A DNA stretch of 32,150 bases. Origin: a virus. The DNA lies in UHGV virus genome UHGV-0070112. One strand, given 5' to 3'. The translations under genes and the position numbers were made by a program. This document shows positions 9,006 through 30,694 of the stretch, piece by piece; the stretch's first letter is position 1; every line of letters starts with the position of its first letter. The notes beneath the pieces were generated by a model. It was not told the DNA's origin, made no database searches, and worked only from the letters and a program-made list of their open reading frames with translations.

Positions 9006-9043
9006 TTACAAGGCAGGCGCTCTACCAGCTGAGCTAAACCAGC
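9006..9043 (-). tRNA. tRNA-Thr(UGU)-like 5' half (acceptor, D-arm, anticodon stem 5' strand and loop)
   Basis: Minus strand GCTGGTT-TA-GCTC-AGCTGGTA-GAGC-G-CCTGC-CTTGTAA with U33 and anticodon UGU. The expected 3' anticodon-stem strand GCAGG is absent; the sequence runs into the HNH RBS. Overlaps the last codons of the N6 methyltransferase. Confidence 0.45.
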
Positions 9044-10083
9044 AAATTGCGCATTTCACTGACCGTCTGTTCAAATCTCTCGGTTTCCAGTTCGACACCT
9101 AGTCCCCTTCGCCCGAGAAGAGCAGCCTGCTTGAGCGTTGAGCCTGATCCAAAAAAGAAATCAGCTACAACATCACCCGGGCGGCTACTCGCTGTGATTA
9201 TCTGCTCCAGCATATCCGCAGGCTTTTCACATGGGTGTTTACCTGGATAAAACTGAACAGGCTTATGAGTCCAGACGTCGGTATATGGCACCGTGACCGA
9301 TACGCTGAATGGTCGCCGTAAACGGTAATATTCCTGCTGGAGTTCAGAATATTTTCGGCTTAACGATTGCCAGGTAGCGACAAGCTGGTGGTGAGGTTTT
9401 CCCAGTTCGTTGCGTGAGTGCTTATCCATGGCGATTTTTTGAAACAAAGCCTGCAACTTTAAATAATCGGCTTCGTTCGGTAGCTGCCACTGACTAAGGC
9501 CAAACCAGTGGGAAACCATATTTTTCTTACCTGTGGCTTCTGCAATCTGAGCGGACGTCACGCCAAGAGATTCCCGTGCATCACGGAAGTAAGAAATTAA
9601 AGGCGTCATGACGTGTTGCTTTAACTCATTACACTTTGCGGCATATCCATCGTCTTTGGGCCTGTATGGCCCCTGATAATGGTCGGCAAAAATGATACGT
9701 TCCGTCGCCGGGAAATATGACCGGAGGCTTTCTTTATTGCATCCGTTCCAGCGTCCCGAAGGTTTAGCCCAGATGATATGGTTGAGCAGGTTAAACCGCT
9801 CTCTCACCAACAGCTCAATATCCGCTGCCAGGCGGTGCCCACAGAACAGATACATGCTGCCGGCAGGTTTTAACACTCGCCAGAACTGTGCCAGACAGCT
9901 ATCCAGCCAACGTAAATAGTCCTCGTCCCCCTTCCATTGGTTATCCCAGCCGTTTGGCTTCACCTTAAAGTAAGGCGGATCGGTAACAATAAGATCAATG
10001 GAGTTATCGGGTAGCGATGGGAGGTATTGCAGGCAATCAGCATTGATTAATTCAATACTGGATGTTTTTACAGTATTTTTCAT
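9034..10083 (-). CDS. DNA N6-adenine methyltransferase, beta class
   Basis: 349 aa; motif IV IVTDPPYF near the N-terminus and motif I FFFGSGSTL near the C-terminus, the beta-class order. No adjacent restriction endonuclease other than the small HNH ORF downstream. Confidence 0.8.
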   Translation of the reverse strand: MKNTVKTSSIELINADCLQYLPSLPDNSIDLIVTDPPYFKVKPNGWDNQWKGDEDYLRWLDSCLAQFWRVLKPAGSMYLFCGHRLAADIELLVRERFNLLNHIIWAKPSGRWNGCNKESLRSYFPATERIIFADHYQGPYRPKDDGYAAKCNELKQHVMTPLISYFRDARESLGVTSAQIAEATGKKNMVSHWFGLSQWQLPNEADYLKLQALFQKIAMDKHSRNELGKPHHQLVATWQSLSRKYSELQQEYYRLRRPFSVSVTVPYTDVWTHKPVQFYPGKHPCEKPADMLEQIITASSRPGDVVADFFFGSGSTLKQAALLGRRGLGVELETERFEQTVSEMRNLLV

Positions 10084-14202: not shown

Positions 14203-15045
14203 TTACTGCGTGACAACGCCAATGAGCTTTAAAAGCTCAGGAAATTTCGATTCGAAGAAGTGCGGTTGCGTCTCACGTGGATTTGCCGGGCTGGTGATGT
14301 TTTTACCGTACAGACAACCTTTTGCCGTAACAGACCAGAATCTTTTCACGCCATTGATACCCGTTCGGCTGCGGCGCTCCTTCTGCTCGACTATGCCGTG
14401 ACCAGCCATAAGGTGATAAGCCTGGTTCGCGGTCATTCTGATGTTGTTAGCTTTAAGCAAAGCGCTAAGAGACAGCGTTGGTCTGCTGGAACCATCCTGC
14501 GCGCCAGCTGGTGCATCAATGGCATATGAAGGCATTAAATCAGGCAGCCCTGCTACCTGCTGAAGCTTCTGATATGCCCCGAGCTTTGACGAATTAGAGA
14601 GATTGAGCATTTTGGCTGCAGATTCCAGGAGGATTATGCCGGCTTGAATGCGATCGGTATTGACGGTTGCAGCCCCAGCAGTGTGGAGCGCGTCAAACGT
14701 TCTGATGACCTTCAGATTAAAAACAGCGCTGATCCACATCGCGTAGGCATACACCAACTCACGGCAAACATAGGTACCTTGCTCATTTCCGCCGCGGATG
14801 ACACTTACAGGTTCTGAAATATCCGAGTTGCTATTTTGCAACTCGCCTATCAATTGCGCAGTTTGTTCGTTACGGAGCCAGAATGCAGGCTTATGGCGGT
14901 CAAGGGAGCCGGAAGCACGATGGAGATCGTTTAGGCAATAACGACCAAGGACATCACGACGAACAGAAATACCATCAATAACAAAAAAATTGTGATTATT
15001 GGATGCAGCAGCACCCATGACGTGGTTAGTCATAGCTTTCTCCAT
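14203..15045 (-). CDS. KilA-N domain protein (antirepressor-like)
   Basis: 280 aa; N-terminal FFVIDGISVRRDVLGRYCLNDLHRASG...KPAFWLRNEQT resembles the KilA-N domain. Confidence 0.55.
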   Translation of the reverse strand: MEKAMTNHVMGAAASNNHNFFVIDGISVRRDVLGRYCLNDLHRASGSLDRHKPAFWLRNEQTAQLIGELQNSNSDISEPVSVIRGGNEQGTYVCRELVYAYAMWISAVFNLKVIRTFDALHTAGAATVNTDRIQAGIILLESAAKMLNLSNSSKLGAYQKLQQVAGLPDLMPSYAIDAPAGAQDGSSRPTLSLSALLKANNIRMTANQAYHLMAGHGIVEQKERRSRTGINGVKRFWSVTAKGCLYGKNITSPANPRETQPHFFESKFPELLKLIGVVTQ

Positions 15046-15121
15046 ACATTTTTATGTGACGAAGGGCCTGCACGCCCGTTTCGTTTGCACTCTTTGACAT
15101 TACTGCCATATCGGCGAACTT

Positions 15122-15520
15122 TCAACCCACAGCTGTACATACATCCACCACTTTTTGATAGCAGACTATGGTGATTTCTACCCTGCCTCCTTTGACGATT
15201 TCACCCCATTCAATAGCCATACGCTTAACCTGGTTGTCGTCCTCCCAGATACCGGCATAAGTCAAAGCATCAAGAAGTGCCTTGTTGTAATTGTCCAGGT
15301 CACGCCGGCGATAGTCTGGCGGATAGAGAATAATTTCTACAGCTGCTGGCGCGGTAGATGGTTTTGGTATTGCACGCAGTTGCTCAATGATCGCTGACCG
15401 TACTGCATGTTTGAATTTACGGCCGGCTGCGCTGACAAGGTGTTTGCCTTTTGCGGGCCCCTTATTTGGGGACCGCCAGTAGGTGTTCACGCTGGGTGGG
15501 AATGGAAGAATAAATTTCAT
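15122..15520 (-). CDS. rusA: Holliday junction resolvase RusA
   Basis: 132 aa; PPSVNTYW and RRRDLDNYNKALLDALT are characteristic RusA motifs. Confidence 0.8.
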   Translation of the reverse strand: MKFILPFPPSVNTYWRSPNKGPAKGKHLVSAAGRKFKHAVRSAIIEQLRAIPKPSTAPAAVEIILYPPDYRRRDLDNYNKALLDALTYAGIWEDDNQVKRMAIEWGEIVKGGRVEITIVCYQKVVDVCTAVG

Positions 15521-15993
15521 TCTGCCTCCAGCACTATTTTCAACTCAAACGGAACATCTCCTCCGCAATAGCAGAGCGGGCCAAGGTCAGACATGAGGCT
15601 CCACAGGGTCATTGACGTATAGCCATTTTCGTCTGTTATCGGGGGCGAAAAGTCCCCGAAGATCCTCGGGTGCTGGATTCGATTCTGCTCGTGTTGTTTT
15701 TCCAAATGTCTGAGGGAAACTTCATTAAGTTTCACTTTTACGATGCTGTTGAGATTGACCGATATTTCTCTGGCCAACAGCGAAGGGGTGATACTGATAC
15801 CGCGAGAAACCCCGCGGGTGATTGTGATAACACCCTTTTTCTCCAACGCCTTGAGGTGTGTTGCTGCTGCATTGGGGGACCGGCACCCCAGCATGCCGGT
15901 CAGTTCGTAAGTTGTAGGCGGAAAACCATGTTTACGCTGATATTCGATCAGGAGGTCCAGGACCTCCTGCTGCCTTAAGGTCAAGGAAGTCAT
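15517..15993 (-). CDS. LexA-like N-terminal DNA-binding domain protein without S24 peptidase domain
   Basis: Start revised to ATG 15993 (MTSLTLRQQEVLDLLIEYQRKHGFPPTTYELTGMLGCRSPNAAATHLKALEKKGVI...), closely resembling the LexA winged-helix domain. C-terminal ~80 aa unrecognised. ATG overlaps the C5-MTase stop (ATGA); its own stop overlaps the rusA start. Confidence 0.6.
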   Translation of the reverse strand: MTSLTLRQQEVLDLLIEYQRKHGFPPTTYELTGMLGCRSPNAAATHLKALEKKGVITITRGVSRGISITPSLLAREISVNLNSIVKVKLNEVSLRHLEKQHEQNRIQHPRIFGDFSPPITDENGYTSMTLWSLMSDLGPLCYCGGDVPFELKIVLEAE

Positions 15994-17960
15994 GCTGCCT
16001 GCTCCTCTCTGTTCACGCACATTTCGGGTAAATTGGCGCGAACCAGCGCTTCGGCGAACGGCGGCGGGACGGCATTTCCACAGCGCGCAACCTGCTTATC
16101 TTTCGCGTATTTCACGCCGCGGTAATCCTGGTCAATGATGTACCACTCGGGGAAGCCCTGCGCCCGGTAAAGTTCGTGTGGCTGCAGCATGCGCATGCCG
16201 ATATCAACGATGCGGTAAGTCACTCCGCCGATTTCCACCAGACCGGTGCATTCCTCTCCGCAGTATTCCTGCAGGAACGACAGCACCTGCTGCGCTCGCT
16301 CTTCGTCATAGTCCTCGACTGCCAGAGTCGTTTTAACCTCGCCTACGTGCTGGCCACCAGCAGTGATAGTCGGCATCGGCTCGTCAGTGCGCTGGCCATC
16401 GCGGCATGTACCACGGAGCTTGATCAGATGAGACGTAACCATTGCGGCATCAGCCTTTGTCGTCATGGTTTGCAATGGCTCGCTAACGTCACGTGGCCTG
16501 CTCTGCCCAGCGCGACCGCCAACACCAACAATCTGAGCAGTAACCAGCGCATGATGATCGACGGTAGTAACTGAATGAGCTGGTTCATCCAAGTCAATAC
16601 CGGCGCCCTGATAATTCCCGCCATAGTGTTTCGCCAGGAATGCGGATACCAGTTGCGATTTACCGCCGCCGCCCGCGGTGATTGTTGCGCTAGGTTCGTC
16701 GGCACGGTGTCCGATGCTGGCGCCGAACTGCCGGGCGATAACCGGAGCGACGACACAGGCGCGCGATTCTTTCATGATGGTGTGAGCGGGTTTATCGAGC
16801 GGGCGTGGTTTAGCCTGGTACTCGCTGCCGCCATTGCCAGCCAGGAACGGCGCCAGCTCTGCTTCAACAATACCCAGAGCGTGACCATTCCCGCCCGGGC
16901 GTTTTGCGGTACCGGCCGTCACCGTCGGCAACGGATCGGTGACTTCCTGCCCGGTAGCTCCGGTTCGGAATTTTGTCAGATGAGGTACCGCAATTGCGTA
17001 GCCGTGGGTTTTCGTAATCGTCTGTAGCGGATCGTCCAGCGCCTGTCCCCGGAAACAGTCGTATTTGCCGCGTGTCGTTGTGTGATTGCACTTCACGATG
17101 AATGGCGAAGCGCTTTCGATAACAAAGCGCTGAATGCCGCGGGCAATCCGTTTTAGCGTATTCTCTGCCAGTGACTTTTTGCGACCGAAGATGCTCGGCG
17201 CGGGGATTGACCAGTCTATGCATTCCGCAGCTGTACGCCACGGCTCCAGCTGGCCCGCCAGCACGGCGGCAGACTTCGGATCCCCGTGCGTGGCTTCCGG
17301 CCAGACTATCGGTTTCCCGTCCCGGCGCATCACCATGAAGAACCGCTTACGGATGGTCGGCGCGCCATAATCGCAGGCGCGCAGCTCGCGAAAATCGACG
17401 ACATAACCAAGCCCGGCAATTAAGCGCTTGGCCTGCTCGCTATCCGGTGAAAACTCCAGAAACTCGCAACACTCCACCAGTGCAGGATGATCTGCTGGAA
17501 TACCGGTGGTAAGCATCCCGACAAATGCATTGAAAGTTTCACCGATGCGTGCCGGATCCGGTCGCATTTCTGCCGCGAGTAACGGACCCCACGTCTTAAA
17601 CTCTTCGACGTTTTCCAGCATCATGACTCGCGGGCCAACATCCAGCGCCCAACGAATGACGATCCATGCCAGCCCTCGAATAGCTTTCTCTACTGGTTTA
17701 GCACCTTTCGCTTTAGAAAAGTGACGACAGTCAGGCGAGAACCATGCCAGGCCGACAGGCTTGCCACTGGTAGCGGCTAATGGGGATACATCAAACACAC
17801 TTTCGCAATAGTGAAGCGTGTCGGGATGGTTAGTGCGGTGCATAGCAACGGCGTTAACATCGTGGTTAATCGCGATATCAACGCTACGCCCTATCGCCAG
17901 CTCAATACCTGTACTGGCGCCACCGCCACCAGCAAAATTATCGACAATAATCTCACGCAT
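15990..17960 (-). CDS. DNA cytosine-5 methyltransferase with a long, repeat-containing variable region
   Basis: 656 aa; motif I FAGGGGAS, catalytic-Cys region FSPDCRHFS, ENV motif MLENVEEF, C-terminal motif-X-like CGNAVPPPFAEAL. About 450 aa between ENV and motif X carry reiterated segments (LPTVTAG, SATITAGGGG, MPTITAGG, LQTMTT, LQTITKT). Confidence 0.85.
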   Translation of the reverse strand: MREIIVDNFAGGGGASTGIELAIGRSVDIAINHDVNAVAMHRTNHPDTLHYCESVFDVSPLAATSGKPVGLAWFSPDCRHFSKAKGAKPVEKAIRGLAWIVIRWALDVGPRVMMLENVEEFKTWGPLLAAEMRPDPARIGETFNAFVGMLTTGIPADHPALVECCEFLEFSPDSEQAKRLIAGLGYVVDFRELRACDYGAPTIRKRFFMVMRRDGKPIVWPEATHGDPKSAAVLAGQLEPWRTAAECIDWSIPAPSIFGRKKSLAENTLKRIARGIQRFVIESASPFIVKCNHTTTRGKYDCFRGQALDDPLQTITKTHGYAIAVPHLTKFRTGATGQEVTDPLPTVTAGTAKRPGGNGHALGIVEAELAPFLAGNGGSEYQAKPRPLDKPAHTIMKESRACVVAPVIARQFGASIGHRADEPSATITAGGGGKSQLVSAFLAKHYGGNYQGAGIDLDEPAHSVTTVDHHALVTAQIVGVGGRAGQSRPRDVSEPLQTMTTKADAAMVTSHLIKLRGTCRDGQRTDEPMPTITAGGQHVGEVKTTLAVEDYDEERAQQVLSFLQEYCGEECTGLVEIGGVTYRIVDIGMRMLQPHELYRAQGFPEWYIIDQDYRGVKYAKDKQVARCGNAVPPPFAEALVRANLPEMCVNREEQAA

Positions 17961-18906
17961 GAGCGGTCCCCCTCATGCTGCCGACCAGCCCACCAGCAAG
18001 GGTGATGATTTCGCTGGTGGGCACGCGCTCCAGCCACAACTGGTTAATATGGGCCTTCAGCTTGTTCTGCTGGGAGAACTCCAGATCCTCTGCGCCTTGT
18101 ACCTGTCCAAAGACGAGTCCAACTTCCAGTGGCCAGATCCGGGATTCAGGCTCAGCCAATGATGCAACAGCATCGGGGATGATCACTTCAGGAGACTGAA
18201 CTGGCGAAACTGGTGACAGGAATTTTCCTGCAGCAAACTCAGCCAGCGCCATACTTGCGCGCCCTTTTGCTTCCAGCTCAACGCGATCGATATAGCTAAA
18301 ATGTTCACCGCGCCAGGTCTTATCAAATACCGCAATGGCCCCGGCAAAGAATGCGCTGGTGGGCTTCTGCTTTTCGTCGGCCGGCACAAACCACGTTGGG
18401 AGATCGAATCCAATACGACCACGAATAAACATGATGTGATCGGCATATTCCGGCCACCATGTTTCACTTGTTGCTGACTTCACGAGGTAAATGTAACGAC
18501 CACCCTTTTCACGCTGCTCGGCGGTATAGTTCATAATATGAGTCATGCCAGTGATGGCTTGTTTTTCATGGTACTGCGAGCGGCTGTACGGCGGATTAGC
18601 AAAGGCCGCTCCTCCGAGTTCTACCAGACGACCAGACCAGTCCTGCGTCAGCGCATTATCTTCAGCGGTATACCATGCCGGGCATTTTGTATTGCTGTCG
18701 TCTGCAAACAGGTCCAGCACCAGCGGGCCAAACAAAGCGTTAACGCCCCAGAACAGCAGATCAGGGGTACGCCATTGATCCCCGACTTCTTTCAAATAAT
18801 GCGAACTTCGCTGGCGCTGTTCCTCAAGTGCCAGGCAATAAGGGCTGACGCTTTTTGTTAAATTTTGCTCTTCTGCGGTCATAGCTTCTTGTACTTCCTG
18901 ACTCAT
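17953..18906 (-). CDS. Phage Dam-type DNA N6-adenine methyltransferase
   Basis: 317 aa; DLFADDSNTKCPAWYTAED and AFANPPYS motifs of the phage Dam family. GGGGA RBS. Has an extra ~100-aa C-terminal region. Confidence 0.8.
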   Translation of the reverse strand: MSQEVQEAMTAEEQNLTKSVSPYCLALEEQRQRSSHYLKEVGDQWRTPDLLFWGVNALFGPLVLDLFADDSNTKCPAWYTAEDNALTQDWSGRLVELGGAAFANPPYSRSQYHEKQAITGMTHIMNYTAEQREKGGRYIYLVKSATSETWWPEYADHIMFIRGRIGFDLPTWFVPADEKQKPTSAFFAGAIAVFDKTWRGEHFSYIDRVELEAKGRASMALAEFAAGKFLSPVSPVQSPEVIIPDAVASLAEPESRIWPLEVGLVFGQVQGAEDLEFSQQNKLKAHINQLWLERVPTSEIITLAGGLVGSMRGTAHA

Positions 18907-19543: not shown

Positions 19544-20451
19544 CCCCGGAACCCCCGTGGAATCGTGGTTTGTACTGGACTAATTGAATTAACATCCCGC
19601 GGTCTGGTTTTGTCCCACGACTCCCTTGGCGGGCGGCCTTTAGCATCCCAACGGATAGCGCTTTGCAGATATCCCTCGAATTTTTTAGGGCCGAAAAGTG
19701 TCTCGGGTCGCATGTACTGGTATTGCTCGTCGTTGCCATGCCAGTGCTCATGCTTGATGTCAATTACCAGTTTCAAGTCGCTAACGGTATGACCTTCGCG
19801 GAGGCGGGCGCGAATGTTCTCCAGCGAGGTCTTAGATTTCTGGTAACGGGAACCGCTGACCAGATTCAGGTGTGCCAGAACTTCGATCGCGTTATCGGTA
19901 ATAACAACTTCAGGATCCGGCTTATCGTCGGGTTCCGCAGGAGCCCGACAAGAAGGTTTTTTAGATGACGGATCTAATGACGGATCTAATGACGGATCGC
20001 CTTCAACCATTGAGGGGTCCTCCCGCAATATTTGAGGGGGTACAGACCCATTATTTGAGGCATCAGAATTTGACCCCTCAAATTTTGAACCCTCAAATTC
20101 TGAGGCATCAAATTTTGATTGTTCACGTGGCGTTGCGTAGAAAATTTTTGCTTCAGCTGCTGCACGTTCCAGCATGTCAACATTGAGTTTATAAACGTTC
20201 GAATTATTCTTTCCGCCCACGCGCCGTTCCTGCTTCTTCAGCCAGCCTTTAGCCTGAAGCTTTTTGATAGCGCTGCGGACAGTATTCTCGCTCTTGGCGC
20301 CGATCTGTCGCTGAATAGTGGTTACCGCTGGCCATGACACACCTTCGTCATTACTGAAATCTGCCAGGCGAGCCATGACCGCTATTTCTGAGATTATCAG
20401 CCCTTTGAAAGCGCATGCTTCCCATACGAGGCCGTGTAATTTACTGCTCAT
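19540..20451 (-). CDS. Replication initiation protein (O-like) with conserved phage C-terminal domain
   Basis: 303 aa; N-terminal HTH-like region, central low-complexity linker encoded by the iteron repeats, C-terminal VLAHLNLVSGSRYQ...LKLVIDIKHEHWHG typical of phage replication proteins. Confidence 0.7.
   Translation of the reverse strand: MSSKLHGLVWEACAFKGLIISEIAVMARLADFSNDEGVSWPAVTTIQRQIGAKSENTVRSAIKKLQAKGWLKKQERRVGGKNNSNVYKLNVDMLERAAAEAKIFYATPREQSKFDASEFEGSKFEGSNSDASNNGSVPPQILREDPSMVEGDPSLDPSLDPSSKKPSCRAPAEPDDKPDPEVVITDNAIEVLAHLNLVSGSRYQKSKTSLENIRARLREGHTVSDLKLVIDIKHEHWHGNDEQYQYMRPETLFGPKKFEGYLQSAIRWDAKGRPPRESWDKTRPRDVNSISPVQTTIPRGFRG
19965..20115. repeat. Iteron-like repeats (candidate origin) inside the replication gene
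   Basis: Direct repeats gacggatctaat x3 (19965-20000) followed by at least six copies of TTTGAGGG / CCCTCAAA-type units in both orientations (20008-20115). Confidence 0.5.
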
Positions 20452-21582: not shown

Positions 21583-21682
21583 AATGGCTCCTTTAACTAA
21601 GTTTGATTAGATAATAATTACCAATCTATCTTTGGTCAATAAAAACTAAGATTGCTTAGCTTGATTGACTACTGGTGTGTAA
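21583..21682. promoter_or_regulatory. Right operator/promoter region between cro and cI
   Basis: 100-bp AT-rich gap carrying CTAAGtttgaTTAG (21596-21609) and CTAAGattgCTTAG (21645-21658); the same half-site family recurs downstream of cI. Confidence 0.45.
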
Positions 21683-22309
21683 ATGGAAACTGTCGGACAA
21701 CGAATAAAATCGCTTAGGCGAATCACCAGAACCTCACAAAAAGAGCTTGGGAAGTTTTGTGGGGTCAGTGATGTCGCAGTTGGGTATTGGGAAAAGGACG
21801 TAAACGTCCCAGGAGGGGAATCTCTTTCCAAACTAGCAAAATTCTTCAATACATCAATTGATTACATACTTTTTGGCACTGAGTTTGAGGGAAACTTAAT
21901 AACTAAGATGCGAAAAGTTCCCGTGATATCGTGGGTGCAAGCAGGATTATTCACTGAATCAAAGCCTGAAGATGTCTTGCATGATGCCGAAAAATGGGTG
22001 GAAACGTCTCTCCGCATCAGCGATAACTCGTTTGCCCTTGAAGTAAAGGGAGACTCAATGACAAATCCTAATGGACTGCCCACGATTCCTGAAGGCGCAA
22101 CGGTCATCGTTGATCCAGACATTGAGCCAATTCATGGAAAGATTGTAGTTGCACGAATAGATGGGACCAACGAGGCCACGGTCAAAAAACTGGTTGTAGA
22201 CGGTCCGCAAAAATTTCTTGTCCCGCTAAATCCCCGTTATCCTAACATCGCCATCAATGGTAACTGCGTCATTATTGGTGTGGTTAAAGGCGTTCAATAC
22301 GAGCTCTGA
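21683..22309 (+). CDS. cI: CI-type repressor (HTH plus S24 LexA-like peptidase domain)
   Basis: 208 aa; N-terminal HTH (TSQKELGKFCGVSDVAVGYWEK), C-terminal S24 domain with catalytic-serine motif KGDSM and downstream Lys. Confidence 0.85.
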   Translation: METVGQRIKSLRRITRTSQKELGKFCGVSDVAVGYWEKDVNVPGGESLSKLAKFFNTSIDYILFGTEFEGNLITKMRKVPVISWVQAGLFTESKPEDVLHDAEKWVETSLRISDNSFALEVKGDSMTNPNGLPTIPEGATVIVDPDIEPIHGKIVVARIDGTNEATVKKLVVDGPQKFLVPLNPRYPNIAINGNCVIIGVVKGVQYEL

Positions 22310-24252: not shown

Positions 24253-25080
24253 ATGTCTCAGTTAGACAGCGGTACTTTTCAGCAGGTTAAAGACCTGGTG
24301 CTTTCCGGTTATCACCTGAACGATATCCACGGCCTGGCCTGCCCGACCGCCCTGTTACCTCAAAATACAAGCGTTGAAAGCCTGGAGCGTTTTTCTTATG
24401 AGCGCTTCCGTTTCCGTGGCGCCATGGACACAACCAGTATTGATGATTTCGTTCGCTATTCTGTTGGTTATGCCCAGGAAGAAGAAAAAGCACGTTGCTT
24501 TATTGATGCCGATAACATGCTTGCTCGCTCTATCTTCAACATCGGTACGCTGGATAACCCAGGCCACGCTGATAACGTCGCCTCGATCAAGCTTAAGAAG
24601 ACAGCACCCTTCCGCGCGTTACTGGCGATCAACGGCGATCACCTTAATCAGAAGCAAATCGCCGAATGGCTCGAAGACTGGAGCGACTATCTCACTGCGT
24701 TCGATGCTGACGGACAGACAATGAAAATGGCACAGGCGGCGCAGGCGGTTCGCCGTGTCACTATCCAGCAAACTAATGCCGCCGATCATGAAGACGGTGA
24801 TTTCAGCGGCAAAAAATCGCTGATGCAAAGTATCGAAGCCAGCAGTAAAGATGTTATGCCGGTCGCTTTTGAATTTATGTGTGTACCGTATGAGGGCTTG
24901 GGCGAGCGTCGTTTCAGTCTGCGCAACAGCCTGCTGAAAAGTAGCGACCCGGTGTTTGTTCTGCGCATTGTCCAGTTGGAGGCGCAGGAAGAAGCGATCG
25001 CCAATGAGTTCCGTGACCTGTTGGTTGGCAAGTTCGACGGCAAGCCGGTAGAAACCTTCATCGGTAACTTCAAAGCCTAA
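24253..25080 (+). CDS. DUF2303-like prophage protein (from recollection)
   Basis: 275 aa; size and position match DUF2303/YfdQ-type proteins of lambdoid prophage early-left operons as I recall them. Confidence 0.5.
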   Translation: MSQLDSGTFQQVKDLVLSGYHLNDIHGLACPTALLPQNTSVESLERFSYERFRFRGAMDTTSIDDFVRYSVGYAQEEEKARCFIDADNMLARSIFNIGTLDNPGHADNVASIKLKKTAPFRALLAINGDHLNQKQIAEWLEDWSDYLTAFDADGQTMKMAQAAQAVRRVTIQQTNAADHEDGDFSGKKSLMQSIEASSKDVMPVAFEFMCVPYEGLGERRFSLRNSLLKSSDPVFVLRIVQLEAQEEAIANEFRDLLVGKFDGKPVETFIGNFKA

Positions 25081-25209
25081 TTCAAAGCCTGATTGCTCAG
25101 CCTTAAATCCCCGCAGCTGCGGGGATTTATTGAAGCGTAATCCTGTAATTAATCGCCACCTGGCGAGGGATTCCTACACCCAAAAAACAGCGCTGTGCAG
25201 GCGTAAAGT

Positions 25210-25749
25210 ATGGAGAAAAAAATGAGCTTTATTCAAACCTTTTCAGGCAAACATTTTAACTATCTCGACATCCAGCAAGACGCCATCGAGATCGAAGATA
25301 TTGCTAATGCACTCTCGAACATCTGCCGCTTTGCCGGTCACCTGCCTGAGTTCTACAGCGTCGGCCAGCACAGCGTTTTAACAAGCCAACTGGTACCTCA
25401 AGAATTTGCGCTTGAAGCGCTGCTGCATGACGCCGCCGAGGCATATTTGCAGGATATCCCTGCCCCATTGAAACGCCTTCTTCCTGACTACCGCGCCATT
25501 GAAGATCAGGTTGATGCAGCTATTCGCCAAAAATTCGGCCTGCCGGCTGAGCAGCACCCAACCGTTAAATATGCCGACCTGGTGATGCTGGCCAGCGAAC
25601 GTCGCGACTTTGAGATCGACTACGGCACCCACTGGCCGATGCTCGACGGCGTCATTCCTACTGACCAGTTTGTGATTAATCCCGTCCGCCCGGGCCAGTC
25701 TTACGGCATGTTCATGAACCGCTTTAACCAACTGATGGAGCGGCGCTAA
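25210..25749 (+). CDS. HD-domain phosphohydrolase
   Basis: 179 aa; His at ICRFAGH and HD dyad at ALLHDAAEAYLQD, consistent with the HD metal-dependent phosphohydrolase fold. Confidence 0.6.
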   Translation: MEKKMSFIQTFSGKHFNYLDIQQDAIEIEDIANALSNICRFAGHLPEFYSVGQHSVLTSQLVPQEFALEALLHDAAEAYLQDIPAPLKRLLPDYRAIEDQVDAAIRQKFGLPAEQHPTVKYADLVMLASERRDFEIDYGTHWPMLDGVIPTDQFVINPVRPGQSYGMFMNRFNQLMERR

Positions 25750-25949
25750 TGGCACATGTGAAAGTGAAAGAATTGGTTGCTGCAGCATACGCTGCAGCAC
25801 CTGACCTACCACCAGCAGCAGCACAATTAATGCAAGACATAGCGTCAAGGCTGGATGTCACCTTTGTCGCCCTTACAGAGGCAATGGACCAGAACACCGC
25901 TATGGCCGCGATGATAGCGAACCTGAGCGAGGAAAACAGAAATGGCTAA
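25749..25949 (+). CDS. Hypothetical small protein
   Basis: 66 aa, Ala-rich; ATG overlaps the upstream stop and its 3' end overlaps the ParB-like start. Confidence 0.4.
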   Translation: MAHVKVKELVAAAYAAAPDLPPAAAQLMQDIASRLDVTFVALTEAMDQNTAMAAMIANLSEENRNG

Positions 25950-26727
25950 AAACTCGATCGATGCTTATGGCGCCAGCGGCAAGACAAACGTTCTGATGTT
26001 CGAGCCGGAAAATCTGCATATTGTCACTGACAAGGCCCACCCGCTTTACGATGAGCGAGTCAGTCTGCCGATCGATGAAGGGATGGTGCTGAATATCAAG
26101 GAGCTGGGTGTTCTTGAGCCGATTATTGTCTGGAAAGACCCTGAAAAGGGGCTCACCTGTGTGGTTGTCGGTCGTCAGCGCGTTAAACATACGCTGGAAG
26201 CCAATAAGCTCCTGCTGAAAGAAGGCAAAACACCGCTGCTTGTTCCTGGAGTCGTTAAGCGTGGGTCGGCATACCAAATGGCCAAATACATGGTTAGCGA
26301 AAACGAAATACGCCGACCTGATACGCCGTTAGGTCGCGCTAAGAAAATGTCCGACGCGCTGGACCGTGGTCATGACGAGGACGACCTTGCGGTGTTGTTT
26401 GGCTGTAGCGTTCAGACCGTACGAGCAACGCTGTCACTACTCGATGCTACCCAGGCTGTTCGGGAAGCGGTGGAGTCCGGCACAGTCACCGTTACCCAGG
26501 CGCGTCAGCTTGGCGCGCTCCCACCTGAAGAGCAGCGGGCAAAAGTGGCAGAAATCGAGCTGGCGACAGCTGGTACCAAAGGCCATGAAAAATCCCGTCG
26601 GCAGCGTCAGGTTCTCGGTGAGGCAAAGCGGCGCATCAAATCACGTAAGGAAATCACAAAAGCCCTCGAAGATGCCAGCGGCGAATATGCCGAGGCTCTG
26701 CTCTGGGTACTTGGGGAGGCGAAATGA
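25942..26727 (+). CDS. ParB-like nuclease-domain protein
   Basis: 261 aa; N-terminal ParB/Srx-like region (LEPIIVWKDPEKGLTCVVVGRQRVKH), central HTH-like segment, basic C-terminus. RBS GAGGAAAACAGAA. Confidence 0.65.
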   Translation: MAKNSIDAYGASGKTNVLMFEPENLHIVTDKAHPLYDERVSLPIDEGMVLNIKELGVLEPIIVWKDPEKGLTCVVVGRQRVKHTLEANKLLLKEGKTPLLVPGVVKRGSAYQMAKYMVSENEIRRPDTPLGRAKKMSDALDRGHDEDDLAVLFGCSVQTVRATLSLLDATQAVREAVESGTVTVTQARQLGALPPEEQRAKVAEIELATAGTKGHEKSRRQRQVLGEAKRRIKSRKEITKALEDASGEYAEALLWVLGEAK

Positions 26728-26858
26728 ACTTTGAACCTGAAAATTACAGCCGGCGCGCCCTTCTCTGGTTTGCGGCACTGGTTAGTGTTGCCGGGTGGGT
26801 TGCAGTAGTCGCTGTGACCTGGGGCGTATGCATGATGATCGAATGGGTGACGGCATGA
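26724..26858 (+). CDS. Hypothetical 44-aa membrane peptide
   Basis: Manual translation MNFEPENYSRRALLWFAALVSVAGWVAVVAVTWGVCMMIEWVTA. ATG overlaps the ParB-like stop and its stop overlaps the next ATG. Confidence 0.4.
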   Translation: MNFEPENYSRRALLWFAALVSVAGWVAVVAVTWGVCMMIEWVTA

Positions 26859-27079
26859 AAGTGAAATGCATCAAAGATACCGAGGGTTGGTGGACTGAGG
26901 GTGAAATGTATCCTGCCCGTGTAGTTGCTGGCGGGTTTGTCCAAGTCGGCGACGATGACGATCCCAATGGCGAAGGCTGGAGCGCTGCACCAATGGAATA
27001 TCGGGAAGATGGCTCGATAGTTTATCAGGTCGGCGGTATTGAGGGTGATGCGTTATTCGAGGAGGCCAGCCATGACTGA
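26855..27079 (+). CDS. Hypothetical small acidic protein
   Basis: Start revised to ATG 26855 (MKVKCIKDTEGWW...), 74 aa; the longer track ORF starts upstream without a convincing RBS. Confidence 0.4.
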   Translation: MKVKCIKDTEGWWTEGEMYPARVVAGGFVQVGDDDDPNGEGWSAAPMEYREDGSIVYQVGGIEGDALFEEASHD

Positions 27080-28106
27080 TATCACCGAACTGGCGCAGGG
27101 TGACATCGACCGGCGTTGTCTGGCAGAAAACACCTTTAATTTGATTTCCATGTCCGGCGGGAAAGACTCGTTAGCCCAATGCCTGTATGCCGTAGAGAAC
27201 GGCGTGAAGCACGATCGGGTGTTTGCTGATACGGGCCATGAACACCCTCAGACGATGGAATATCTGGATTATCTTGAACAAAAGCTGGGTCCGATTCGCC
27301 GGGTAAAAGCTGATTTCACTCGCCAGATTGAGGGTAAACGTAAATTCATTGCAGAAAAATGGCCGGTTTCCCTCGTTGAAGAATGCGGGATGTCTCACGA
27401 TGAAGCGGAGGAGCGTATCGCCCGTGCACTGGAAATCCTCCACCCAACCGGTAATCCATTTCTGGACCTGTGCATGTGGAAAGGTCGATTCCCGAGCACA
27501 AAAGCGCGGTTCTGCACGTTCGACCTTAAACATGAGCCTGTACGCACTCAGGTGGTGCTACCGGCGCTTGATGAATATGACGAGGTTATTAGTTGGCAGG
27601 GCGTACGCGCCCAAGAATCGCCAGCGCGGGCTGGCCTGCCGATGTGGGAAGAGGATGCAGATAATACTCCTGGTCTGCACGTCTATCGCCCAATTCTCAA
27701 TTGGCTGCATGAAGATGTGTTTGCTATTGCAAAACGCCATGGAATTAAGCCAAACCCACTATATCTGCAAGGCTGTAGTCGCGTTGGGTGTATGCCATGC
27801 ATTCACGCTCGAAAATCTGAATTAGCGGAGATTTTCCAGCGTTGGCCGGAGGAAATAGCCAGGGTAGCAAAGTGGGAGCGCTTCGTTGCAGCTTGCTCTC
27901 GCCGCGGCAACTCTACATTTTTCCCATCAACCCATGATCCGCGCCGGGCAGAACGTCGTATAGACGTTATCACGGTGGACGGTTACGGGATTGAAACCTA
28001 TCGCGACTGGGCGATGACAACCCGAGGCGGAGCCCAGTTCGATTTACTGGCTGAAGCTAACGACAAATCCGTGTGTAGCAGCGTTTATGCAGGGGTGTGT
28101 GAGTGA
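27072..28106 (+). CDS. PAPS-reductase-like (phosphoadenosine phosphosulfate reductase family) protein
   Basis: Start revised to ATG 27072 with strong GAGGAGG RBS. P-loop-like SMSGGKDS near the N-terminus and Cys-rich C-terminal region (CSRVGCMPC). Confidence 0.7.
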   Translation: MTDITELAQGDIDRRCLAENTFNLISMSGGKDSLAQCLYAVENGVKHDRVFADTGHEHPQTMEYLDYLEQKLGPIRRVKADFTRQIEGKRKFIAEKWPVSLVEECGMSHDEAEERIARALEILHPTGNPFLDLCMWKGRFPSTKARFCTFDLKHEPVRTQVVLPALDEYDEVISWQGVRAQESPARAGLPMWEEDADNTPGLHVYRPILNWLHEDVFAIAKRHGIKPNPLYLQGCSRVGCMPCIHARKSELAEIFQRWPEEIARVAKWERFVAACSRRGNSTFFPSTHDPRRAERRIDVITVDGYGIETYRDWAMTTRGGAQFDLLAEANDKSVCSSVYAGVCE

Positions 28107-28279
28107 TTGATCTTGCTGAGTGCGAAGCACGTGCACTCATTAAAAACCTGCAGCAGCGGATAAAGTGGAAAGAGGAATTAGCTCCTCTCAATCATCTTGA
28201 AGCGCAAGACCTGATTATTTATCGGATAGCACTTGAGGCGCTCGAAGAGGCATTGAATGAACGAAAAATTATTGAATGA
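28103..28279 (+). CDS. Hypothetical 58-aa protein
   Basis: Manual translation (M)IDLAECEARALIKNLQQRIKWKEELAPLNHLEAQDLIIYRIALEALEEALNERKIIE. GTG start overlaps the PAPS-reductase-like stop. Confidence 0.35.
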   Translation: MIDLAECEARALIKNLQQRIKWKEELAPLNHLEAQDLIIYRIALEALEEALNERKIIE

Positions 28280-28416
28280 CGACGTGAAAATTCTCCTTCG
28301 TCAGATAGAAGACGGCAAGCCATATGTCGAACTTATTAACTTCATGGTTAATCAGTTCGGATTGACGTACCGAGAGGCGCAGGAAGTCCATGAGAAGTTG
28401 AGTCGGGAGAGTGATT
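28255..28416 (+). CDS. Hypothetical 53-aa protein
   Basis: Manual translation MNEKLLNDDVKILLRQIEDGKPYVELINFMVNQFGLTYREAQEVHEKLSRESD. GAGG RBS; the next gene starts 2 nt after its stop. Confidence 0.35.
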
Positions 28417-28418
28417 AA

Positions 28419-29297
28419 ATGACCAATAACCAGTTAAACAGAGAACGTCTGGAAAAAATTAAATCATGGCGTGAAACCTATGGATCTGAAAGCAACGTAA
28501 TGCTGCCAGCAGAAGAAGCGGAAGAGCTGGCCCGCATGGCGCTGGACGCAATGGACGGTGAGCCGGTTGTGTTCACAGATGAACGAAACCTTCATCATAT
28601 TGCTATGGGCCGAGAAACATCTCTGATTTGGGGTAAACAAAACCAGCTGGCGGGGGATATCCCGCTCTATCGCCACGCGCAGCCAGCGCCGGACCGCGAG
28701 CAGGTACGCCGTGAGCACGCCGAGTGGTCACAGGCTACGTTCGGTAATGTCGGCCCGGTTGGCCCACTGAAGCACCTGGCAAAAGAGGCTATGGAGGCCG
28801 CAGCGGAACCAGATGACCTGTCGGAGTGGGCTGATATGCAATTCCTGCTGTGGGATGCCCAGCGCCGGGCTGGTATTACAGACGAGCAGATTACCCAGGC
28901 GATGATCGAAAAACTGGCGGTGAACAAACAGCGCGAATGGCCTGAGCCGAAAGACGGTGAGCCGCGGTTGCACATTAAAGATCAACCATCGGCGGTAGGG
29001 CCAGTAACAGATGCTATGGCTTACGCATTCCATCATGCGCTAACCGATGGTCCCCTGGGTGATGACGATGTGGAGGATATTAAGATCGGATTGAGAGCAG
29101 CTTTCGCTAATGTAACCACCTATCAGCCATTACCAGTAGTGCTGAAAGAGCATCAAATCCGTGAACTAATCAATAAACTGCGTGATATAGCTATTGAATA
29201 TCACAGTACACAACAATTGCGTGAGCATATTGCTTGTGTTGTCCACGCCGCTATGAGCGCGATCGCACCACCAGCGCCAAAAAGCGCAGTTAATTAA
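28419..29297 (+). CDS. DUF550-like (dATP/dGTP pyrophosphohydrolase-type) domain protein
   Basis: 292 aa; central REHAEWSQATFGNVGPVGPLKHLAKEAMEAAAEPDDLSEWADMQFLLWD resembles the DUF550/MazG-like domain of lambdoid early-left proteins as I recall it. Confidence 0.55.
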   Translation: MTNNQLNRERLEKIKSWRETYGSESNVMLPAEEAEELARMALDAMDGEPVVFTDERNLHHIAMGRETSLIWGKQNQLAGDIPLYRHAQPAPDREQVRREHAEWSQATFGNVGPVGPLKHLAKEAMEAAAEPDDLSEWADMQFLLWDAQRRAGITDEQITQAMIEKLAVNKQREWPEPKDGEPRLHIKDQPSAVGPVTDAMAYAFHHALTDGPLGDDDVEDIKIGLRAAFANVTTYQPLPVVLKEHQIRELINKLRDIAIEYHSTQQLREHIACVVHAAMSAIAPPAPKSAVN

Positions 29298-29324: not shown

Positions 29325-29543
29325 ATGGAGAAATCTATGCTGAGCCTCGATTGTGTTCCCATCTCAACTTATTGCAAAGAGACAGGCGAAACCCCTGATG
29401 CCATAAATAAGCGCATCCAGCGTGGCGTATGGCGTGAAGGAGTACAGGTGCTAAAGGTCGAAGGCGTTAAGGAAAGATGGATAGATCTTAGTGAGGTTGC
29501 AAAATGGGCTCGACAAAATCGCCTAAACTCCCGCGCGGCGTAA
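29325..29543 (+). CDS. xis: Excisionase-like protein
   Basis: 72 aa, immediately upstream of and overlapping the integrase gene; small basic HTH-like protein. True start may be the ATG at 29337. Confidence 0.5.
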   Translation: MEKSMLSLDCVPISTYCKETGETPDAINKRIQRGVWREGVQVLKVEGVKERWIDLSEVAKWARQNRLNSRAA

Positions 29544-30694
29544 CGATCAGGAAACATAGTACTGGGGAAACTATCAATATTACCTTTACCTATAAGGGGG
29601 TGAAATGCCGGGAACCTTTATCAAACCTTGAAGTTAATAGCAAAAACATAAAATACGCCGAGCGAACACTCGGCGAAATACACAATAAAATTGAGCGGGG
29701 TACATTCAATTATGGTGAACACTTTCCCCGTTCGGCACGACTTAAAATATTTGGTAATGCTTCAACAGGAAAAACGGTAAAAAATTATCTCGATGAATAT
29801 CTTGTAATTTGTGAAACGAGAAAATTATCTCCTTCAACAATCGGCGGATATAAGAAATGTTTAAATGCTTTGGCATCACTTCACGTTTTTCCTGCCAGTG
29901 AATTAACACCTGCTGCTTTAAAAACATGGATCCAGAGTCAGAAAACGACATTAAAAACGATTAGGAACCAACTTTCATTCCTACGCTCAGCACTGGATGA
30001 AGCTGTGACTGATGGTGTATTACAGATTAACCCAGTTTCACTGGTGACAGCCTCGCGCTACCAGAGCAGTAAAACCGAGGATGAAAGTGATTATATTGTT
30101 GATCCGCTTTCACCGGCCGAGGTTGAAGCGCTTTTGCATGCCGCAGGTAACAAGCAGTGGGAAAACATATTCCGCTTTGCAATTGAAACCGGGCTACGTA
30201 GTTCTGAACTCTGCGCCCTCCGTTGGCGCGATATCGACTTTATCGGCAAAACAGCGCATGTGCAAAATGCCAGCGTAGTGGGGGTAATTAAGGGCACGAA
30301 AACTAAAGCTGGAACACGTAAAGTTGAGTTAACCGAAGAAGCCTTGTATGCCCTGATTTCTCAGAAGCCTTTCACCTTTATTAAAGATGCAACGATCTTT
30401 GAGGATCCCAAGACAGAAAAACCATGGGCGGGTGCCGATGCGATAAGAAAGAAAGCTTGGGTGCCAACTTTACGCAAAGCCGGGATCAGGTACCGCAATC
30501 CATACCAGACCAGGCATACGTTCGCGACCAGGCATATTAGTCGAGGCGCTAACCTGTTCTGGCTCGCATCGCAGATGGGACACAAAGGGCCTGAAATGTT
30601 GTTCAGGCATTATGGACGCTATCTGAAGGAGTATGACGGCAACACTGAAAAACGACCCAAGCTGGTCAGCGGTGGAACCTCAAAGGAGCCGTAA
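29504..30694 (+). CDS. int: Tyrosine integrase (lambda-Int family)
   Basis: 396 aa; C-terminal catalytic region with RHTFATRHISRGANLFWLASQMGHKGPEMLFRHYGRY (R, H-x-x-R, Y). Last phage gene before the attachment core. Confidence 0.85.
   Translation: MGSTKSPKLPRGVTIRKHSTGETINITFTYKGVKCREPLSNLEVNSKNIKYAERTLGEIHNKIERGTFNYGEHFPRSARLKIFGNASTGKTVKNYLDEYLVICETRKLSPSTIGGYKKCLNALASLHVFPASELTPAALKTWIQSQKTTLKTIRNQLSFLRSALDEAVTDGVLQINPVSLVTASRYQSSKTEDESDYIVDPLSPAEVEALLHAAGNKQWENIFRFAIETGLRSSELCALRWRDIDFIGKTAHVQNASVVGVIKGTKTKAGTRKVELTEEALYALISQKPFTFIKDATIFEDPKTEKPWAGADAIRKKAWVPTLRKAGIRYRNPYQTRHTFATRHISRGANLFWLASQMGHKGPEMLFRHYGRYLKEYDGNTEKRPKLVSGGTSKEP

Follow-up and report, generated by a model that had tools for sequence, protein, structure and literature searches.

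A LexA-type DNA-binding domain without its protease, joined to an uncharacterised phage domain in a lambdoid prophage

What does a LexA-type protein without a protease do in a prophage that already carries a cleavable repressor of its own? This question is raised by a gene located between a C5 methyltransferase gene and rusA in a 32,150-nt stretch of viral DNA (UHGV-0070112), the whole of which was analysed and is referred to here as the window. The window is a lambdoid prophage, with an integrase at 29504-30694, and the region shares 98.9% identity with Klebsiella phage Kp4866-6, which encodes a 100% identical copy of the 158-aa product. An identical protein is present on 116 NCBI contigs, where it is labelled 'SOS-response repressor and protease LexA [Klebsiella]'.

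An earlier note, made from the sequence alone, had placed a LexA-like gene at 15517-15993, its start overlapping the methyltransferase stop and its stop overlapping the rusA start. The ORF table and the sequence confirmed that the gene is real, lies on the minus strand (ATG 15993-15991, TGA 15519-15517) and shares 4 nt, ATGA, with each of its neighbors (Table 1). Its product consists of two domains joined by a short linker, and it is at this linker (residues 69-75) that the short, long and fused forms of the family described below diverge in alignment. In the predicted two-domain model pLDDT falls to 75 at residues 71-80, and pTM is only 0.53.

Table 1. Coordinates of the LexA-like gene, its domains and the associated prophage features in the window.
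Feature	Position	Strand	Basis
Gene of the two-domain protein (LexA-type winged helix plus domain X), stop included	15517..15993	-	ORF and translation, 158 aa
LexA-type winged helix-turn-helix DNA-binding domain, residues 1-68	15790..15993	-	
Interdomain linker, residues 69-75	15769..15789	-	pLDDT dip and divergence point of short, long and fused forms
Domain X, residues 76-158, small alpha/beta domain (phrog_5792/phrog_29443), in place of the S24 peptidase domain	15520..15768	-	
ATGA overlap, C5 methyltransferase stop and LexA-like gene start	15990..15993	-	sequence and ORF table
ATGA overlap, LexA-like gene stop and rusA start	15517..15520	-	sequence
AGGAG Shine-Dalgarno, 8 nt 5' of the LexA-like gene ATG, within the end of the methyltransferase gene	16002..16006	-	read from sequence
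rusA, Holliday-junction resolvase	15122..15520	-	PF05866 E 2.8e-16
C5 cytosine DNA methyltransferase, 656 aa	15990..17960	-	PF00145 E 6.5e-19
Dam-type N6-adenine methyltransferase, 317 aa; next upstream, same operon	17953..18906	-	PF05869 E 9.3e-43
PR-like sigma-70 promoter match, adjoining the cro-like gene, opposite the cI-type repressor	21611..21639	-	promoter scan, 10/12 matches
cI-type HTH_3 plus S24 repressor	21683-22309		

The N-terminal part proved to be the LexA winged helix that the earlier note had recognised. Homology of residues 1-68 to the LexA DNA-binding domain is very strong (53% identity), the recognition helix reading SPNAAATHLKAL and the wing RGVSRGI, and S39, N41, A42 and the wing residues R64-G65 are conserved throughout the family. 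The phrog_362 match (E 8e-32) covers residues 1-71 and aligns only positions 1-71 of the 106 in the profile, and TIGR00498 scores 62.9 bits against a cutoff of 110.95, or about half, with the alignment again confined to residues 1-71. No S24 peptidase signal was obtained on the 158-aa protein at any threshold tried; the Ala-Gly dipeptide at which LexA cleaves itself is absent throughout the translation, as is the Ser/Lys dyad of S24 peptidases. With the domain, the cleavage site and the catalytic dyad all missing, RecA-stimulated self-cleavage cannot inactivate this protein, and the proposal that it is non-cleavable stands. The public name, used in NCBI entries such as WP_098362866.1 and GKJ27881.1, is therefore wrong as to the protease.

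The LexA residues reported to contact DNA are S39, N41, A42, E44 and E45 (PMC3091678). The 158-aa protein keeps three of these five (S39, N41 and A42) but has A T in place of E44 E45. At position 45 the short and fused forms of the family have D or E; the long form, to which this protein belongs, invariably has T or S. Given the replacement of E44 E45 by A T, specificity for SOS boxes may be lost, as in gp6, the truncated LexA homologue of phage GIL01.

The C-terminal ~90 residues had been described as devoid of S24 features, which is correct, but they have features of their own and make up a separate phage domain, conserved and widely distributed, here called domain X. An exhaustive HMMER search with residues 71-158 returned 511 clusters (50% identity) at E<=1e-3. 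Most of these relatives consist of X alone, in 80-100 aa. Others carry additional, unannotated segments, and some, such as P0076 and P0130, are tandem X duplicates. Members share over ~80 aa the pattern N-x-N...G...D-x-x-G-[YFW]...LW-x-LM...G...PF-E, and all of the invariant or near-invariant columns (N10, N12, G23, D51, G54, M64, G68, G74, P78 and F79) are retained in the 158-aa protein. The protein matches phrog_29443 at E 1e-41 and phrog_5792 at E 1.8e-6, the latter a family of unassigned function that is matched by 64 of the 66 X members aligned. U5PUJ8 of Bacillus phage Grass superposes on the domain with a TM of 0.89. No member matched any Pfam family, the PDB contained no related sequence, and the predicted fold, though confident, matches nothing solved; nor did ten multi-domain X proteins yield a Pfam partner domain. 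All named members are annotated "hypothetical". Mostly as a stand-alone protein, X occurs in early or accessory gene arrays of SPO1-like Bacillus phages, Vibrio phages, Pseudomonas PaBG, Agrobacterium 7-7-1 and E. coli Bas81. LexA-type names were found on stand-alone X proteins of Vibrio phage 137E35-1 and of Pantoea PdC23, whose gp56 is called 'SOS regulatory protein'.

Within the phrog_5792/phrog_29443 family, only the Klebsiella/Raoultella/Enterobacter group has the LexA domain. The architecture combining a LexA domain with X is kept in Klebsiella, Raoultella, Enterobacter and Franconibacter, and both of its domains are under purifying selection, with dN/dS values, across 19 distinct sequences of the fused gene, of 0.07 (DNA-binding domain) and 0.14 (X). 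Since X is mostly found alone, in phages without a LexA-like domain, it has a function of its own. Identity with an EF-hand was considered and rejected. The calmodulin match is weak (E 0.036-0.6, residues ~118-140) and runs through a D-E-N-G-Y loop with a helix behind it; neither position 1 nor position 12 of the loop is acidic or conserved, and the likeness is probably a chance resemblance. The search with X also matched two long repeat proteins, P0084 (1591 aa, with 'TDANGCTATD' repeats) and P0101 (1690 aa), over 5-10 short stretches each; such hits most likely reflect composition or the loop motif and not true homology.

The position of the gene bears on when its product would be made. It lies 5.6 kb into the rightward early operon, of the nin-type, delayed-early kind, in the order PR-like promoter, cro, cII, O-like replication gene, activator-like ORF, Dam, C5 methyltransferase and LexA-like gene, followed by rusA, KilA-N, a 176-aa ORF, DUF968 and antiterminator Q. 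Further prophage genes encode an N6/N4 methyltransferase, holin, endolysin and small terminase. The promoter scan detected no promoter-like site directly upstream of the LexA-like gene; we infer the operon assignment, the gene being presumably transcribed from the PR-like promoter. Judging from this layout, the gene is probably silent in the lysogen, and the early-operon position implies that its product would probably appear no earlier than induction or infection, by which time host LexA has been cleaved. Since the prophage possesses its own cleavable cI-type S24 repressor, the 158-aa protein is not the immunity repressor.

Several other features of the prophage were recorded. Three classes of DNA methyltransferase are encoded in this single element, N6_N4 (9034-10083), C5 and Dam (the latter two as in Table 1). 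The best PF00145 match in the 656-aa C5 enzyme covers residues 6-122, one of two stretches altogether, which suggests a large non-canonical central or C-terminal region. The leftward early region (24253-29297) encodes DUF2303, a YfbR-like nucleotidase, a ParB-HTH protein, a PAPS-reductase-domain protein and a dATP/dGTP pyrophosphohydrolase, and from these assignments appears to be an accessory cluster with a flavor of nucleotide or DNA modification. The 76-nt spacer between rusA and KilA-N (15045-15122) contains a short ACAT-N4-ATGT inverted repeat just 5' of the KilA-N ribosome-binding site; the corresponding spacer is only 19 nt long in Stx2a phage WGPS2, and the repeat is therefore not conserved.

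If the protein is a LexA-box binder, where are its sites? The earlier note had suggested a search of the prophage for CTGT-N8-ACAG, and this revealed no credible box: the single exact match in the 32-kb window lies within the C5 coding region, and 0.42 are expected by chance. Boxes with one mismatch numbered 16 against 9.3 expected, all of them without AT-rich spacers and nearly all in coding sequence, in which CTG and CAG are common codons. Neither an enriched spacing of CTGT/ACAG or related half-sites in the window nor a conserved palindrome near the LexA-like gene was found, and LexA boxes in the prophage were discarded as targets. Inverted repeats fared no better as candidate operators, the only ones seen being origin-like and located inside the replication gene. 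These overlapping repeats of 13-30 nt at 20053-20113 (ATTTGAGG...CCTCAAAT), within the O-like gene, are probably origin iterons. With no operator in the window, the specific target of the protein, if it has one, should lie off the prophage or differ from CTGT.

The DNA-binding domain has many homologues in enterobacterial prophages, at least 559 of them in IMG/VR, and 81 phage records match it. They take the short, long and fused forms described next, besides some with other tails. The short form (105-109 aa; SfV Orf42, mEp460_046, Stx2a phages; PHROG 362) ends in a helical tail of ~35 aa. The long form (150-162 aa; Klebsiella, Raoultella, Enterobacter, Franconibacter) ends in domain X, and the 158-aa protein accordingly has X instead of the short helical tail, which corresponds to PHROG 362 profile positions 72-106. 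In the fused form (202-212 aa; Klebsiella, Kluyvera, IMG/VR contigs) the DNA-binding domain is in frame with a complete RusA. Such LexA-domain::RusA ORFs were seen at loci L037, L051, L094 (L094:2261-2899), L102 and L103 and as proteins P0050, P0051 and P0057, with the domain at residues 1-70 and a linker of ~10 aa. NCBI calls some of these fused ORFs RusA only, from an internal Met; STW98422.1 is one accession of such a natural fusion. Another chimera, P0058 (133 aa, Klebsiella quasipneumoniae), joins the Dam N-terminus (~66 aa) directly to the last ~66 aa of X, showing that deletions and recombination generate fusions in the slot between methyltransferase and rusA.

To what extent is the gene tied to its neighbors? 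We examined the loci of the best 80 of the at least 559 viral-contig relatives. In 75 of them rusA lies directly downstream of the LexA-domain gene and overlaps it by 4 or 1 nt, and in 2 the two genes form one continuous reading frame; two copies are disrupted and one differs. Synteny with rusA, adjacent or fused, thus holds at 77/80 loci, the present one included. The gene upstream varies across the same 80 loci, being a C5 methyltransferase in 35, Dam in 22, an activator-like ORF in 13 and another gene in 10. Because of this variability, a special link to the C5 methyltransferase was rejected. In a reciprocal survey of 80 RusA loci, one per species, the LexA-like gene was adjacent in 22 and fused in 3, all with a RusA at least 54% identical to that of the prophage, and it was absent from 51. 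At loci without a LexA-like gene, rusA still overlapped its upstream neighbor by 4 nt in 34 of 54, and in ~20 of the 54 this neighbor was a DNA methyltransferase (Dam, D12/C5, MT-A70 or N6_N4). In enterobacterial prophages rusA nearly always shares an ATGA with the preceding gene, irrespective of its identity. The ATGA overlap hence belongs to the slot and not to the gene. The proposed coupling to rusA survives in part: the 4-nt overlap is present, but it is not specific to the LexA-like gene, and as evidence of partnership it is weakened accordingly. The LexA-like gene is an optional occupant of a fixed slot between methyltransferase and rusA. A general association of X with RusA was also considered and not retained, being seen in Pantoea PdC23 and one Vibrio phage and not in four metagenomic contigs or Bas81.

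Taken together, these data best support the reading that the gene encodes a RecA-insensitive LexA-type DNA-binding protein that would be made in the early lytic operon. A more specific proposal, to which we attach a probability of about 0.3, is that the protein serves as an uncleavable LexA surrogate at CTGT-like sites outside the phage. The self-cleaving S24 dimerisation domain would have been replaced by an unrelated small phage domain, X. The winged helix would bind duplex DNA through a recognition helix nearly identical to that of LexA (SPNAA-x-x-HLKAL), and X might provide the oligomerisation or partner contact that is the job of the S24 domain in LexA. The protein would then sit on sites of the LexA-box-like (CTGT) type, either in the host chromosome or in co-resident elements, and re-impose or reshape repression during lytic growth. 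This proposal draws support from the strong homology of the DNA-binding domain, the absence of the cleavage machinery and the purifying selection on both domains, as well as from a position downstream of a PR-like promoter in a prophage that has a repressor of its own. The tandem X duplicates are compatible with X being a dimerising unit, the lack of a candidate operator in the window fits targets outside the phage, and gp6 provides a precedent for a truncated phage LexA homologue acting as a site-specific DNA-binding regulator (PMC6182141). The protein may be the SOS modulator envisaged in the earlier note. Against the LexA surrogate stand the changes at two of the five contacts, with T or S at position 45 of the long form, which may alter specificity, and the fact that our searches found no binding site of any kind. 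Its neighbors are genes of DNA metabolism and not regulatory genes. An interchangeable C-terminus and, in some phages, direct fusion to RusA are unusual for a transcription factor, and X occurs mostly alone in phages without a LexA-like domain.

Alternatively, the winged helix, although derived from LexA, might recognise a non-SOS phage site of its own and activate or repress a phage promoter for timing. GIL01 gp6 does just this, being a truncated LexA homologue with its own palindrome and a role in late activation (PMC6182141); position 45 of the recognition helix departs from LexA in the present protein, and the short form (PHROG 362) bears the label 'transcriptional repressor', albeit by homology only. 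We nevertheless regard such a timing regulator as unlikely, as the window contains no conserved palindrome or enriched half-site spacing, antiterminator Q already serves late transcription, and some close relatives of this rusA cassette do without the gene, which is unexpected for a core timing regulator. The constancy of rusA downstream of a variable upstream gene points in another direction, namely that the winged helix could tether, target or restrain the resolvase as an accessory of RusA or of the methyltransferase-RusA cassette, with the tail or X contacting RusA. LexA-domain::RusA ORFs, in which the link is covalent, occur in several clusters and species, and the segment between the DNA-binding domain and rusA is swapped (tail, X or none) while the flanks are kept together. 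This explanation also seems doubtful to us. RusA is active by itself (PMC10956419), most RusA loci surveyed have no LexA-like gene, and the generic overlap, often with a methyltransferase upstream, means that the linkage can be explained by an optional gene inherited in a fixed slot. Moreover, distant members in ST846-OXA48phi9.1, Hafnia yong2 and Rouxiella and Serratia loci are not beside rusA, stand-alone X genes have no consistent RusA neighbor, and the NCBI annotation of some fused ORFs covers the RusA part only.

The wide distribution of X raises the further idea that X is the functional core, perhaps a host-takeover or anti-defence binder, a sponge or a ligand sensor, which the LexA domain would localise or make signal-responsive, or else that the protein is a neutral fusion of nin-region ORFs. 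X is indeed mostly a stand-alone protein in the early or accessory arrays of very diverse phages, its polar positions N10, N12 and D51 and its DxxGY loop are conserved, and chimeras such as P0058 indicate that fusions arise readily. However, purifying selection on both domains and an architecture kept across four genera make a neutral accident unlikely; for X as the core, nothing pointing to a ligand or target was found, and neither the PDB nor Pfam offers a match. We judge this family of explanations improbable. At similarly long odds, two bolder schemes can be imagined from the available sequences. Either the LexA winged helix, its variable C-terminus and RusA would form a two-part, sometimes fused, DNA-tethered Holliday-junction resolvase, or X would be a sensor or partner module that makes a LexA-box binder into a RecA-independent, signal-controlled SOS override, with which an induced phage could silence host SOS functions and LexA-controlled rival prophages.

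If the LexA surrogate does bind SOS boxes, an induced phage would be making an uncleavable substitute for the very repressor whose cleavage accompanies induction. Such a phage, its own induction assured, could shut down host SOS functions, as well as rival prophages or bacteriocins under LexA control. Competition between prophages in Klebsiella and E. coli would be affected, also where Stx phages with the short form are concerned. Irrespective of the role of the fused protein, domain X is widespread and has a confidently predicted fold, which makes structural and functional study of it reasonable. The misleading LexA protease name could in addition distort lexA counts or SOS analyses in Klebsiella genomes.

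Comparison with known systems places the protein as follows. E. coli LexA (PF01726 plus PF00717; TIGR00498) has the S24 peptidase/dimerisation domain, Ala-Gly site and Ser/Lys dyad that the 158-aa protein lacks, and the gene described here lies within a phage early operon and not behind an SOS box. By description, the closest characterised analogue would be gp6 of GIL01, a Bacillus thuringiensis tectivirus. This truncated LexA homologue, 44% identical to host LexA, recognises a palindrome of its own, GaCACAnnTGTGaC, and is an activator of the late promoter P3 (PMC6182141). Both proteins are phage-encoded, derive from the LexA DNA-binding domain, lack a cleavable C-terminal domain and belong to an early operon. 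They differ in that gp6 is essentially a DNA-binding domain alone, from a Firmicutes tectivirus, with a demonstrated site and activator role, whereas the 158-aa protein has an extra, unrelated domain of 83 aa and comes from a lambdoid enterobacterial prophage with Q-dependent late control. PNB-2, a winged-helix protein of Stx phages known to associate 1:1 with a methyltransferase (PMC10810198), is not the same gene, as it belongs to another locus, with an MT-A70 enzyme at gp5-gp7 near the prophage end.

Much nearer relatives are the short-form proteins SfV Orf42, mEp460_046 and WGPS2_21 of the Stx2a phage (PHROG 362), which have the same DNA-binding domain (62-75% identity) and share the methyltransferase/rusA slot and the ATGA overlaps, but carry a helical tail of ~35 aa and D/E45 where the long form has X and T45. 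A full-text literature search found no experimental study of the short or the long form. Members of phrog_5792 and phrog_29443 in turn have the same domain as residues 76-158, though mostly as stand-alone proteins without a LexA domain. Truncated phage LexA homologues are thus already known, and this common family has been catalogued and misnamed; what is new is the union of a LexA DNA-binding domain with an uncharacterised phage domain.
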